In this document: positions 1,775 to 58,259 of the stretch, piece by piece
Layout of the letters: the number at the start of each line of letters is the position of its first letter
Position numbering within the stretch: position 1 is the stretch's first letter
From: Octopus vulgaris
Taxonomy: Eukaryota
NCBI GenBank assembly: GCA_951406725.2
Contig: OX597823.1
Location: 114,018,001 to 114,082,000, forward strand
Length of the DNA stretch: 64,000 nt
Direction: 5' to 3'
Position numbers and translations under genes: made by a program
The notes under the pieces: model-generated
The model's database searches: none
What the model saw: only the letters and a program-made list of their open reading frames with translations
Told to the model about the DNA's origin: nothing

Positions 1775-2166
1775 ACGTAAGGGGGATCAGCCATCTGAAT
1801 GTGGCTAGGGACAGGGCGGGGTGGTGGGGGTGTTACTGATGCATTTAGCCCCAGGCGATCATCGACGTCACCAGAAGGAACGACACTATCACGGTGTCCT
1901 TGCTAGCCTGTAAAGGGAGATCAGCCTCCCCGAAGATACGGATACTACATACGGACCGGTTGGGAGGCTGATCTCCCTTTACAGGCTAGCAAGGACACCG
2001 TGATGGTGTCGGTCATTCTGGTGACGTCGATGATCGCCTGGGGCTAAATGCATCAGTAACACCCCCACCACCCCGCCCTGTCTCTAGCCACATTCAGATG
2101 GCTGATCCCCCTTACGTTATAGAGCAGTTACTGTTTATATCTCGCTCAGAGATTTATTATTGTTTA
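1775..2166 (+). mobile_element. Foldback element family H1: 156-bp inverted repeat + one-sided tail, in (TA)n
   Basis: Arms 1775-1930 and 1962-2117 are near-perfect reverse complements around a 31-nt loop; tail gcagttactgtttatatctcgctcagagatttattat shared with the 30751 element; (TA)n on both sides. Confidence 0.85.
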
Positions 2167-2280
2167 TATATATATGAATATATGTATATACATATAAATA
2201 TATATACGTACGTATGCATACATATATACATACGAATATATATATATATATATGTATTTACATATATATATATATATATA

Positions 2281-2498
2281 TTCAATATGTGACCGCGTTT
2301 GTATCGTTGCCGTCTTTTTTTCCAACCTCTTCTCTTCCTTGGATCTTTCCTTTTTCTAAGTTTCTGACGAAGAGCTCCGCTCGAAACGTTAAATCCTACT
2401 TCCTTCTTTCTTTTCCTGAGCGTCAAATAACACTATACTTGTTCCATGTCCTCGCGTTGTTGTGTTTTCTCTTTGTGTTTTCATGTTTGGATTAACTA
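2281..2498 (+). mobile_element. Short (TA)n-embedded repeat carrying a hammerhead motif (second copy at 55563-55750, minus)
   Basis: About 190 bp nearly identical to the reverse complement of 55563-55750; flanked by (TA)n. Confidence 0.8.
2360..2394 (+). ncRNA. Minimal type-I hammerhead ribozyme motif (PLE type)
   Basis: gttt-CTGACGA-a-gagc-tcc-gctc-GAAA-cgtt-aaat: intact core, 4-bp stem II, palindromic ACGT/AACGTT stem III, short stem I. Confidence 0.7.
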
Positions 2499-2918
2499 TA
2501 TATATATATATATATATATATATATATATATATATATACACACACATATACATACATATATATATATACATACGTACATACATACATACATACATGCATG
2601 CGTGGATGAGGGATTCATCATTTATGATGAATCTTTGAAACGGACGGAATCAGGAAATAGCTTTTGTTAACATTCCTTTTTTTAATCCATGCACATAGAC
2701 ACTATTCATACACAAACACTCACGCACATGCACACACACACACACACACACACACACACACGCACTCACTCACACACACACTTGAATCATACAGTGATCC
2801 TGATATAAGACAGCTTCCATCTCAGTACATTTGGGGCAATTCCAGAGATCCAGGGCTAACCTGGCTACAAAGGGAAAATTTTCTCTCCAAAGAATTGCTT
2901 TCTCATGTATAGGTACCT

Positions 2919-3149
2919 ATTTCTTTACTACCCACAAGGGGCTAAACATAGAGGGGACAAACAAGGACAGACAAACGGATTAAATCAATTATATTGACCC
3001 CAGTGCGTAACTGGTACTTATTTAATCGACCCCGAAAGGATGAAAGGCAAAGTCGACCTCGGCGGAATTTGAACTCAGAACGTAACGGCGGACGAAATAC
3101 CACAAAGCATTTCGCCCGGCGTGCTAACGTATCTACCAACTCGCCGCCT
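2919..3149 (-). mobile_element. tRNA-derived SINE family A, full length
   Basis: Reverse complement of ggcggcgag(c)tggcaga..gttagcacgccgggcgaaat..gagttcaaattcc..gcctttcatcctttcggggtcgat; TSD tgtatag(g/c)tacct at 2906-2918 and 3150-3162. Confidence 0.92.
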
Positions 3150-3393
3150 TGTATAGCTACCTGCTGAATATAGTTCTACCCACCCTGACACTATCTACCA
3201 CAACCATCCAGGCATATTATATTGACTATAGCATTTCTGCAGCTCTTTCCCACATTTTCCAAGCGGAACTTAAAAGGCATGCTTCCAAAAGATCTGTGTT
3301 TATGCAAAGACCATGCGACAGATTGCCACACATTTTCAGTCAACTGTCGTCTCAGATCTGATTTTACGCAAAATATGAAAACATGAAATATGA

Positions 3394-3585
3394 AAGGCAT
3401 TTATCGCGACGATGAATACCTTGCGGCGTTTGTTCCGATTCTTTGTATTCTGAGTTCAAATCACTCGAAAACCAACTTTGCCTTTCATGACATCGGAATA
3501 GATAATATATAGTTCCAGCCAAGTGTTGGTGTCGATATGATCCACAAATCCCTTCCTTTGGCCCGATACGTATATTAGAAACCTT
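3394..3585 (+). mobile_element. Degenerate SINE family A
   Basis: ttctgagttcaaat...actttgcctttcat...gtcgat motifs. Confidence 0.6.
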
Positions 3586-3621
3586 TTTGAAATGCAAGCG
3601 TCGTCGTTACGTTCTTCTAGC

Positions 3622-3990
3622 TTACTACTAATACTACTACTGTTACTACAACTACCGTTACTACTACTACTACTACTTCGACTACTACTACTACTACTAC
3701 TACTACTACTACTACTGTTACTACTACTACTACTGTTACTACTACTACTACTGTTACTACTACTACTACTACTGTTACTACTACTACTACTACTACTACT
3801 ACTACTGTTACTACTACTACTACTACTACTACTACTACTACTACTACTACTACTACTACTACTACTACTACTACTACTACTACTACTACTGTTACTACTA
3901 CTACTACTACTACTACTACTACTACTACTACTACTACTACTACTACTACTTCTGCTGCTGCCGCCAATACTTCTACAACTACTACTGTCA
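3622..3990. repeat. Long (CTA)n microsatellite with CTGTTA interruptions
   Basis: Direct observation; source of the poly-L/S/V ORFs. Confidence 0.97.
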
Positions 3991-55377: not shown

Positions 55378-55515
55378 TATATATATATATATATATATAT
55401 ATATATATATATATATATATATATATATATATATATATATATATATATATATATATATATATATATATATATATATATATATATATATATATATATATAT
55501 ATATATATATATACA
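55378..55515. repeat. Long perfect (TA)n
   Basis: Direct observation; similar arrays at 41613-41725 and 42205-42305. Confidence 0.97.
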
Positions 55516-55562
55516 TAGATATGTATACACACACATACATATATAAATATATATATATATAT

Positions 55563-55750
55563 ATAGTTAATCCAAACATGAAAACACAAAGAGAAAACAC
55601 CACAACACGAGGGAGTGGAACAAGTATAGTGTTATTGGACGCTCAGGAAAGAAGGAAAGAAGGAGTGTTTAACGTTTCGAGCGGAACTCTTCGTCAGAAA
55701 CATAGGGAAAGGTAAGATCCAAAGAAGGGAAGATGGAGGAAAAAAAAAAT
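55563..55750 (-). mobile_element. Second copy of the hammerhead-bearing TA-embedded repeat
   Basis: Reverse complement of ~2312-2498. Confidence 0.85.
55666..55702 (-). ncRNA. Minimal type-I hammerhead ribozyme motif
   Basis: Minus strand tgttt-CTGACGA-a-gagt-tcc-gctc-GAAA-cgtt-aaaca: perfect 5-bp stem I; stem II kept by U-G where the 2360 copy has C-G. Confidence 0.75.
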
Positions 55751-56209
55751 ATATACATATATATATATATGCCCACTTTAAATGTTATTGCGTAGCAATT
55801 GCACATCCCGACTAATTTCTGCAAACTAGTCACCCGGCAAACATTGTGAAGTAGGGTGTATTCAAAGTGCTGTTACATCTGATTTCATCACTCATGAATA
55901 AAAGAAAAGGAACAATTTTGGCAGCTCAGCTTATCAAAAGCAAAGTAATGACATGCTAACATTACAAAAATCTAGGCCCGCTGTAGCTGCTTCTGTTTAG
56001 AAATTCTGAAACCTCCTGTAACGTATCTCGTACAATTTCGCAAAGTAAACACGCCAAAATATACATTTTCTCTTTGTTGTTTGCTGTTAAAGATAAGCGG
56101 TGTTTTTTTCCGATTATAGTTTCTAGATAAAAGTAGCTTTCGTGTTTTCTTCGAATTTAGTAGTTTCATGGTCTCTATTCATGGAGCGGTGCGAGTTAGT
56201 GTTTTGGGA

Positions 56210-56357
56210 TCTAGGTTACATGCGACTGAAGGATATTTGAAAAGGATTACAGTATAATGGAAAACAGCCAACCTTGGTGGAATTTGAAATGATAAAGTAA
56301 TGTGTCGGAAGAAATCCCACAATGCATTTTTCGGACGCTCAAACGATTCTGCCAACA
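56210..56357 (-). mobile_element. Degenerate SINE family A
   Basis: aaaggat..ccaaccttggtggaatttgaa..aacgattctgcca. Confidence 0.6.
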
Positions 56358-56482
56358 GCAACAACAACGTATCTTACACTCCCTGGCTTAAATTTTATCT
56401 TCAGATTTTCCTATATTTGTGGCTGGAACTACCTTGCTGTCAGGTCGACATTAAGCTATATTTCATTATATTCGTTTATATA

Positions 56483-56715
56483 TATTTCCTTACAACCCAC
56501 AAGGGGTTAAACACAGAGGAGACAAACAAGGACAGACAGACGGATTAAGTCTATTATATCGACCCCAGTGCGTAACTGGTACTTAATTTATCGTCCCCGG
56601 AAGGATGAAAGGCAAAGTCGACCTCGGCGGAATTTGAACTCGGAACGTAACGTCAGACGAAATACGGCAACGCATTTCGCCCGGCATGCTAACGTTTCTG
56701 CCAGCTCGCCGCCTT
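56483..56715 (-). mobile_element. SINE family A
   Basis: Full length; TSD tcgtttatata at 56472-56482 and 56718-56728. Confidence 0.92.
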
Positions 56716-57619
56716 CATCGTTTATATAATCGTTTATATATTTTACTCAACATTCTCATACACTTAGACACATGTGTGTATGGCAAGCATTGTTAGGCAC
56801 GATTTGCTCTAATTTATTCTCGTTAAGTTATTGCAAATCTTACAAATATTTTGTCTTTTACTATTATACATACATACATACATACATACATACATATATA
56901 TGTGTCTGTGTTTATGTGTATGTAATATCTCATTTCTCGTGTTTCTTATCTTAGACTGAGATGATTGTAGTAATATAGTTTTTCGTTTTGGATAGATCCT
57001 GGTAATAACATTTTGCCAGAGTTTTACGAAGCCTATCTATATACAACTATTTCAACACGTGTGGACATTCTCACCATTCTGCTTCTGTATGTCAAGCTCA
57101 TAGTTTGTAAATATCAAACTCATATATGCATATTAATATTTAACTATAGATGTGTACATAAAAATGTGTATTCGTGTATATGTCATGTTCGTTACAAATA
57201 CATATTATATATATATATAAAATATTTTCTGAAAAGTTCATATTATACTCAGGAAAATGGTAGTAGTCTTATATAACTAGTAAATATATATTATTACACT
57301 GGCTTCTTAAGGTTTCACTCTTACCTAAGTAATGTATATCATGAGTTAGTAGGTCTTTCGTAGTATATTTTGATTACATTTCATTGTGTTTCACTTAGTA
57401 TTTCACTTCAGTATTTTTCGACCTGTTTTATGACCAGGGACATTTTAGTGTTATTGACACGAACAGTTTTGTCTTAGAAAAGTTATAATAGTTTTCATTT
57501 GAAGGAATTGTATCTCAAACTTTCGCTATGATACATACTCAGAGTGAACATGCACATGCGTTAGCAAGACAGATCACTAACCGCCGTGAAAGATAGACTT
57601 ATATTGCTTGTCAAACGGA

Positions 57620-58259
57620 GGTTCCAACTGGTTTACATCACCGAAGAGAGACACGGTTGTTTGAAATATAACGTAGATGTTATATGACGTACTAGCAGTA
57701 TCGCCCGGCGTTGCTCGGGTTTGTAAGGGAAATAACTATATAAGCATTTTTAGAGATGTAAAGTATAATAGCCATCTCAATATGGCTAACCACAAAGGGT
57801 GGGTGTTACTGTAGCTTTTTACGTTCTGAGATTTAATAATAAATTTTTAGAGAGTTACTTCCCTTATATATGCCAAAAATGCATTAAAAATGGGAAAAAT
57901 TGATGGTAAATTTGTTTTAAAATCGTAGACTCATCGTAGACGCGCGCTAATACCCAGAAGGGCTCGATATGAATCACGACTATAAGATACCCGGTTTTGG
58001 TTAAACTGCACCGCAAAATGTGGGAGTAGTTAGGAATATAAATCGTAGGAGACAGACACACAACTTCACTTTTATATATAAAGATTAGATGTAATTGAGT
58101 TTCCAAATGGAACCGAAGAGACACAGTTGTTTCAAATATAACATAGATATTGTATGACATATGCGACGTAAGGAAGATTCCAACTGGTTTACATCAACGA
58201 AGAGAGATATAGTTATTTGAAATATAACGTAGATATTTTATGGCGTATTAGATGTAATC
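57620..58259. repeat. Local ~80-bp tandem repeat (3 units) interrupted by a Helitron
   Basis: ttccaactggtttacatca.cgaagagaga.a..gtt.tttgaaatataacgtagat repeated at ~57622, ~58101 and ~58178. Confidence 0.85.
57692..58084 (-). mobile_element. Non-autonomous Helitron carrying an 86-bp H1 insert
   Basis: Same family as 42751; TC..CTAG termini on minus strand, A|T insertion. Confidence 0.92.

Follow-up and report, generated by a model that had tools for sequence, protein, structure and literature searches.

A microsatellite-rich, 64-kb stretch of the Octopus vulgaris genome (contig OX597823.1, positions 114,018,001 to 114,082,000; 35.5% GC; hereafter the window) carries many short inserts with hammerhead ribozyme motifs or foldback structure. 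These inserts comprise two kinds of sequence marked by one insertion scar, namely truncated 3' ends of coding Penelope-like elements (PLEs; families A, B, D and G) and truncated non-coding units (families E1, E2 and F), and both kinds were very probably inserted by Penelope reverse transcriptase (RT) and GIY-YIG proteins. The non-coding units have the features of retrozymes and, because they bear the same scar as coding PLE ends, such retrozymes are likely to be copied around the genome by Penelope enzymes.

The families were labelled by their window copies: A (2284-2496 and 55566-55748), B (18070-18266), C (40619-40747), D (15894-16600), E1 (1771-2165), E2 (30748-30968), F (30999-31252 and 23491-23635) and G (46883-47088). 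Self-BLAST of the window and searches of the genome (2.8 Gb in 227 contigs) placed all eight among interspersed repeats, with 1,426-3,389 first-look candidates per family query. An evenly stepped 800-kb sample of the genome held insertions of A (7), B (6), C (2), D (13), E1 (1), E2 (4, one being a cross-hit to an E1 array), F (4) and G (6), and the copy number of each family is roughly in the thousands to tens of thousands. A previous reading of the window from its letters alone (the sequence-only reading) had described five elements with an inverted repeat and a one-sided tail, all of which were found by sequence inspection and self-BLAST.

The scar is common to coding family G and to the non-coding families E1, E2 and F. 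The 3' ends of the non-coding families fall at two fixed sites of the unit, 182-183 and 221-228 in E1 (40/44 segments), 169-176 and 215-225 in E2 (59/64) and 162-176 and 263-281 in F (54/58), while 5' ends are scattered; where 5' ends do cluster at the ribozyme cut site, the query selects for them. One arm typically ends at the first fixed site and the other at the second, hence the one-sided tail. Among loci chosen as best matches to hairpin queries, head-to-head pairs numbered 20 in 22 loci for E1, 25 in 29 for E2, 24 in 29 for F and 18 in 24 for G, most of their junctions lying within a few nt and at variable positions. Target-site duplications (TSDs) measure 9-13 bp; at the 37 sites that were not flanked by TA on both sides, 14 had a duplication of at least 9 nt, compared with 23 among 4,184 pairs of mismatched flanks. 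Within 30 nt of the insertion there was a TA run in 48-100% of cases (E1 17/20, E2 12/25, F 24/24, G 13/18) against a background of 8.5%.

Single window copies do resemble elements with terminal inverted repeats (TIRs) set in (TA)n, as would be expected if the foldbacks were miniature inverted-repeat transposable elements (MITEs) or foldback DNA transposons that target TA. We give this explanation almost no credence, since arms differ between copies in length and centre, only one side has a tail, head-to-tail multimers occur, duplications are 9-13 bp long, units bear hammerheads, and both G and D run on into RT/GIY-YIG frames. The hallmarks of MITEs, i.e., fixed TIRs at both ends and a short fixed TSD, were absent from the mapped E1, E2, F and G copies, and the scar as a whole (two fixed 3' ends, variable junctions, 9-13-bp duplications and a (TA)n bias) excludes MITEs. 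The sequence-only reading had placed most elements in (TA)n, which fails for the D element at 15894, whereas the other elements do lie in or beside TA runs.

As far as the available parts of these papers go, the scar resembles the PLE anatomy in PMC8557442 and PMC3846280, and the two mapped 3'-end sites resemble the pair of RT start sites by which the tail is set in a purified anole PLE, an enzyme that cuts both strands and extends them (PMC11167929). By analogy with that in-vitro system, a PLE enzyme would make nicks about 10 nt apart in the two strands of an AT-rich target, and cDNA would be primed at two internal sites of the RNA, the spacing of which would give the tail (43, 44 and ~100 nt). 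Two truncated cDNAs would then be joined 5'-to-5' by microhomology, leaving a hairpin with a one-sided tail. An alternative for the inverted junctions is self-priming on an antisense template, as discussed in PMC3846280.

The inserts of families A, B, D and G are, from their sequence, 3' ends of coding PLEs and not non-autonomous families. We screened for a PLE-type peptide match within 1.7 kb upstream on the same strand (tblastn with 10 local PLE peptides), at loci that were partly gathered by walking upstream and some of which were duplicated, and obtained matches at 8/78 loci for A, two rows of which (L026/L291) are a separate element, 14/57 for B (12 of them to the B partner), 20/62 for D and 11/43 for G. 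The clade names used for PLEs here are based on motifs only.

A related coding frame lies 1.05-1.24 kb upstream of family A at three independent loci, and L316 adds RT. Two further candidates for the A partner, a Neptune-like frame upstream of the A copy in L026 and an RT beside the A copy in L003, were rejected as separate insertions. For family B, a low-complexity upstream region leads to RT and zinc-finger/GIY-YIG-like frames, and for family G an upstream peptide pointed to copies in which a single 468-aa frame holds both RT and GIY-YIG. Pfam matches to the G partner (RVT_1, E=3.9e-4; GIY-YIG, E=6.1e-4) and to the D partner (RVT_1, E=1.2e-6) all fall under the curated cut-offs. The A and B partner peptides had no Pfam match, and their assignment comes from motifs and from tblastn to other local PLE peptides. 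Because longer copies reach coding frames, most of the hammerhead inserts are solo truncated PLE ends of the sort described in the available part of PMC4209133.

The sequence-only reading had taken the hammerhead inserts to be mutually unrelated, which does not stand: direct inspection gave A and B a common layout and common motifs, their coding partners are related, and the foldbacks at 1775 and 30751 are related too. Its proposal of a Penelope-type architecture has held up. The adjacency to PLE RT/GIY-YIG frames that it had suggested looking for was found for these four families and for none of C, E1, E2 and F (35-38 loci each).

In the window, the two A copies each carry an intact minimal hammerhead, one on the + strand (2284-2496; core at 2364, cleavage predicted just after 2390, with (TA)n next to the insert's end) and one on the - strand (55566-55748; core at 55697). 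The B copy (18070-18266, -), a PLE 3' end of the zinc-finger-linker type, has a hammerhead-like motif with the family-wide CUGUNGA core. The G foldback (46883-47088, +), the 3' end of an RT and GIY-YIG PLE, lies in (TA)n and has a ~50-nt tail. At one locus (L237) a G foldback has inserted into a D copy, in its tail region, with what looks like a ~12-bp duplication. Family C (40619-40747, +), with a hammerhead-like motif and a CCGAUGA core, is the 3' part of a longer element: its copies have at least 300 bp of upstream sequence in common, and one copy extends further, with no upstream PLE peptide match at 37 loci (0/37, the same 10 local peptides). Some C copies (L334, L340, L342, L358) do not stop at the usual 3' end but run ~150 bp further, where a second fixed end lies. 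PLE-type coding families of two more kinds were seen at L003:2223-3182 / L325 and at L291:3-851; neither is linked to the window families, and one has a near-intact frame of RT and zinc-finger/GIY-YIG-like type.

Families E1, E2 and F are built differently. Their longer copies loop back onto their own tail, giving head-to-tail tandem units of 360, 354 and 535 bp, respectively, with GC contents of 48, 41 and 32%, longest stop-free stretches of 85, 79 and 77 aa, and z scores for the predicted circular fold of -2.8, -3.5 and -3.2 against 40 shuffles. Each unit contains a type I hammerhead. Its helix III is short, and in E1 and E2 it is a palindrome; helix II is long in F. E1 and E2 are homologous, the window copies at 1775 and 30751 being 71% alike over 133 nt, and in a homology-based alignment helix I differs in sequence while its pairing is kept. 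An apparent covarying stem in the E1/E2 tails was dropped, having come from a private change in the window copy. By the sequence criteria in the available text of PMC7229834, E1, E2 and F are non-LTR (long terminal repeat) retrozymes.

The window copies of these families are all on the + strand. The E1 foldback (1771-2165, in (TA)n) has an inverted arm at 1771-1967, a forward arm at 1962-2165 and a ~43-nt tail (about 2122-2165), and is a truncated 360-bp unit that retains only the 3' end of the ribozyme, at the junction. The E2 foldback (30748-30968, in (TA)n; arms 30748-30813 and 30812-30968, ~44-nt tail) and the F foldback (30999-31252, in (TA)n; arms 30999-31091 and 31089-31252, ~100-nt tail) are truncated units of 354 and 535 bp, and neither copy has a ribozyme; a solo F arm with its tail lies at 23491-23635. 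Because these copies are cut before or within the ribozyme, the hammerhead origin of the foldbacks at 1775, 30751 and 31002 is hidden from the window. The idea of non-autonomous, retrozyme-like PLE parasites in the sequence-only reading thus fits E1, E2 and F, and has to be given up for A, B, D and G as coding-PLE ends.

It is improbable that E1, E2 and F are instead arrays of pseudo-LTRs (pLTRs) shed by unseen coding PLEs with the same pLTR and moved in cis. Four of the eight families did prove to be coding ends only after upstream walking, A at more than 1 kb, and homology between retrozymes and pLTRs has been reported in Xenopus (available text of bioRxiv 10.64898/2026.07.22.740005). However, the units close onto the previous tail upstream of the hammerhead, 19 of the 44 segments of E1 are longer than a unit (the longest 2,019 nt) without leaving it, and upstream matches to the 10 local PLE peptides were found at 0/35 E1, 0/37 E2 and 0/38 F loci.

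Slightly less probable still is that the tandem arrays arose by DNA-level crossover or slippage of a solo pLTR, with only short monomers being retrotransposed. A satellite-birth model of this kind is discussed in the available text of bioRxiv 10.64898/2026.07.22.740005, and a 119-bp sub-repeat array in L035 does look locally amplified. Against it, arms of 650 nt and 2,019 nt lie on the two sides of one head-to-head junction in L141, both longer than a unit and each running to its own fixed site, as expected if they were copied in one event. This array (L141:2095-4763), of an E1 subfamily with a C3-G8 core, has about 7 units and a head-to-head inversion.

For retrozymes copied by a PLE, the enzyme would act in trans, on a multimer that has not been cleaved or on a circle closed again by ligation, because both the unit junction and the site of predicted cleavage are crossed by many cDNAs; the cleaved linear monomer would be ruled out as template, since the arms cross the cut site. 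Palindromic helix III predicts cleavage as dimers, by analogy with the hammerheads in the available part of PMC4209133. Contigs of four runs guessed to be RNA cover E1, and in three of these runs they join its end to its start; such joins were rejected as evidence of circles, because tandem copies in the genome produce them as well. In one presumed RNA run (X1), contig depth was very uneven over an E1 arm (L206:1554-1640), which could reflect small RNAs from the foldback, something that contigs cannot show.

Family D combines a coding PLE end with a tRNA-like head. At L128 an inverted arm is joined to a GIY-YIG-like frame that continues into the tRNA-like segment, a repeat and the hammerhead; a search with this frame returned 2,718 candidates, the longer D copies bear RT motifs, and the partner is Penelope/Poseidon-like by motif. 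The window foldback (15894-16600, +), which is the 3' end of this RT and GIY-YIG PLE, consists of an inverted arm (15894-~16238) and a forward arm (~16232-16600), the latter comprising the tRNA-like head (about 16240-16316), (AAT)n/(AAC)n, a hammerhead core at 16470 with a mutated GAAA, and a ~30-nt tail. Inverted arms were seen in many D copies.

Exact A and B boxes were each present in 12 of 16 full copies of D. Of the D arms that reach the head, 19/27 start within -7 to +7 of the tRNA-like +1 and 8 start further upstream, while 14 further arms start inside the head; these counts leave out loci fetched with the coding query, and a strict definition of D gives 16/20. The binomial p of 2e-10 for this clustering was obtained with 18/26 and treats arms of one insertion as independent, which they are not. 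Both window arms start at +1, and in the unbiased sample D insertions started at -8 and -6 (two), +8 (one) and -41 (one). That most head-reaching arms start at the tRNA-like +1 suggests a transcript of RNA polymerase III (Pol III) that is copied by the PLE: the internal tRNA-like promoter would likely make a short RNA, on which the same machinery would act. D is, on its sequence features, a possible PLE-driven short interspersed element (SINE).

The pile-up of D 5' ends could also arise if the PLE mRNA were cut in the manner of RNase P, or if a small palindrome there favoured junctions, with no part for Pol III. We regard this as unlikely, although well short of negligible. Just upstream of the D +1, the first bases of the head recur as a short inverted repeat, and the head is only weakly tRNA-like: ARAGORN calls it a tRNA only at a relaxed threshold (0/8 loci at default), and Rfam gave no tRNA match to it. 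However, the exact boxes, the rarity of T4 runs in full D copies (2/16, vs A4 runs in 16/16; the window A, B, C and G copies all have T4) and solo copies without an inverted arm that also start at +1 (L115, L139) favour Pol III. For the fuller proposition that there are two Penelope parasites, circular-RNA retrozymes reverse-transcribed by a PLE from two fixed sites, and a Pol III, tRNA-headed hammerhead SINE born in a PLE 3' end and moved by that PLE and not by a long interspersed element (LINE), we would put the chances at about even.

The ribozyme motifs themselves are clearly enriched. A hammerhead descriptor gave 4 matches in the window, against a mean of 0.11 and a maximum of 2 in 200 shuffles, and 24 matches in evenly spaced samples totalling 400 kb, where 30 shuffles gave 0-4. 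Two of the four window matches (2364, 55697) had been named by the sequence-only reading; the others (41968 and 56237, both +) have a U3-A8-type core and lie outside the named families. Among the hammerhead inserts that it had listed, the only intact canonical cores in the window are those at 2364 (+) and 55697 (-), both of family A. The core at 18155 (B) reads CUGUAGA and that at 40647 (C) CCGAUGA, and in the D copies GAAA has become CAAA at 16470 and the motif at 15954 is decayed, yet 41/57 D relatives are intact. Counted with patterns that allow only 1-3 flank mismatches, so that strongly decayed copies are missed, intact cores were present in 33/60 sampled relatives of A, 38/38 of E1 (C3-G8 in 7, U3-A8 in 31), 9/12 of E2 and 7/9 of F, and canonical cores were rare in B (1/43; CUGUNGA), C (3/32; mostly CCGAUGA) and G (1/24; CUGAUGC in longer copies).

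The even-step sample also held more hammerhead-like families (L143, L153, L158, L160, L167, L173, L370, L378, L380, L395), which are likely to be additional families of the same kind. Several of these loci are opposite-strand hammerhead pairs inside long inverted repeats, the arms in L167 being 1.36 kb each.

Several observations weigh against insertion of both kinds of sequence by Penelope proteins, or against the ribozymes. No intact full-length open reading frame of A, B, D or G was recovered among the fetched loci, and the copies of A and B that were viewed had no obvious inverted arms (uncounted). No coding element with E1, E2 or F termini was found with the 10 local peptides, a comparison that was not genome-wide, and the choice of best matches to hairpin queries for the scar counts enriches inverted copies. 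Because their cores are non-canonical family-wide, the B, C and G ribozymes may be inactive. Support from the Infernal/Rfam scan proposed by the sequence-only reading is weak: at nine loci there was no hammerhead at E<=1e-4, an E2 copy had no hammerhead match, and the best result, an alignment of Hammerhead_1 to one E1 copy with the right core, is weak (12.3 bits, E=3.1, gathering threshold 34). For the window, no hammerhead was among the 150 matches listed of 348, which were mostly microRNA models on microsatellites. Hairpins of this sort are easily mislabelled as MITEs, SINEs or microRNA precursors, as the Rfam microRNA look-alikes in the window illustrate.

Much of this biology has precedents. 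The available parts of PMC4209133, PMC8557442, PMC7229834 and bioRxiv 10.64898/2026.07.22.740005 already report retrozymes, non-autonomous PLEs and PLE ends with minimal hammerheads, as well as inversions, tails and a bias towards microsatellites. Our families resemble endonuclease-bearing (EN+) PLEs (PMC4209133; PMC8557442; PMC3846280; PMC11167929), as described there, in the order of RT then GIY-YIG, a terminal repeat with a minimal type I hammerhead (canonical in A and D), a prevalence of solo truncated copies, an inverted 5'-truncated copy, an optional one-sided tail of 30-40 bp, TSDs of 8-10 bp in rotifer copies, AT-rich or (TA)n targets, and the U3-A8 core variant known from Schistosoma. 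They differ from those descriptions in the family-wide core changes of B, C and G and in the tRNA-like A/B-box head within the 3' region of D. The low-complexity 3' regions, of 1.0-1.2 kb in A and 0.5-0.7 kb in B and G, are a further difference. PLE hammerhead variants that cleave as dimers are reportedly the subject of a 2017 paper, which may already include the altered cores of B, C and G.

E1, E2 and F are like the metazoan non-LTR retrozymes in the available parts of PMC7229834 and bioRxiv 10.64898/2026.07.22.740005 in being non-coding tandem units of a few hundred bp with less than 50% GC, one type I hammerhead per unit, forms from monomers to multimers, predicted self-pairing and co-occurring PLEs. 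At 535 bp and with its long helix II, F exceeds the 150-450 bp range in PMC7229834, and circles and cleavage, which have been shown for published retrozymes, are predictions for our units. PMC7229834 regards PLEs as a strong candidate mobiliser of animal retrozymes, and bioRxiv 10.64898/2026.07.22.740005 argues from co-occurrence and pLTR homology that these are non-autonomous PLE sequences; to this link E1, E2 and F add two fixed 3' ends, a tail and head-to-head inversion, features that the available text of neither paper mentions for retrozymes. The Chlamys MRC1 system (PMC8557442, available text) is alike in its non-coding PLE passengers, pLTRs and multicopy insertions in head-to-tail order, and unlike in being algal and from a clade without canonical hammerheads. 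The 3' ends of Chlamys passengers generally match autonomous families (PMC8557442), while no such match was found for E1, E2 and F in the comparison with the 10 local peptides.

The retrozyme-type units described here bear the tail and inversion scar that the available literature describes as unique to PLEs. The new element is support at the level of the insertion scar, as read from sequence, for PLE mobilisation of retrozymes, and if true this would be the first insertion-scar evidence that PLEs move them. Both predicted RT start sites are mapped to a few nt, in E1 to about positions 183 and 226 of the unit with the predicted cut as origin, so the claim could be tested directly with purified PLE protein and a 360-nt RNA.

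tRNA-derived SINEs, which for octopus figure in the title of a reference cited by PMC10886601, have A and B boxes, a tRNA-like +1 start and a 3' end in common with an autonomous retroelement. Family D has these three features as well, and differs in that its partner is a PLE and not a LINE, its head lies inside the autonomous element, and its insertions lack a simple-repeat 3' end and show the inversions and tails of PLEs. If true, a tRNA-headed PLE end would extend SINE partnerships to a third retroelement class. Literature searches turned up no description of these octopus families or of a tRNA-headed PLE end, and Dfam, Repbase and the octopus repeat library curated in PMC13282606 may hold them under other labels.

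Other features of the window are less closely connected with these families. The sequence-only reading had taken 22900-23260 as one decayed GIY-YIG fragment followed by a foldback arm. Of this interval, 23167-23350 (+) matches an APE-type LINE family that has no relation to the system, and the preceding YIG peptide (22960-23165, +) is a possible, weak GIY-YIG-like fragment (Pfam GIY-YIG E=0.042) with no tblastn match to the 10 local PLE peptides at E<=1e-3 (best E=0.098). As an autonomous partner of the F arm at 23491 it was rejected, because the LINE piece and a TA run intervene. At the right end of the span covered by that reading, 57756-57835 (-) is an internally deleted E2 remnant nested in an element that we take to be Helitron-like. 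This short element occurs with matching ends at 57691-58087, the copy that carries the remnant, and at 42748-43154.

At 32000-32180 and 50340-50470 lies a strongly structured repeat that has a motif of GAAACGT type and is joined to a tRNA-SINE-like family at 32523-32912 and 50474-50670, which is also present at 5050-5438, 13207-13400 and 26623-27005. The most abundant short repeat of the window, presumably SINE-like, is found at 2914-3150 and in about 15 other places, with tandem 183-bp copies at 9816-10179 and 29279-29644. An element at 11052-11528 has 37-bp inverted ends around TTAGGG-like repeats, and a small imperfect hairpin lies in non-microsatellite sequence at 27457-27518.

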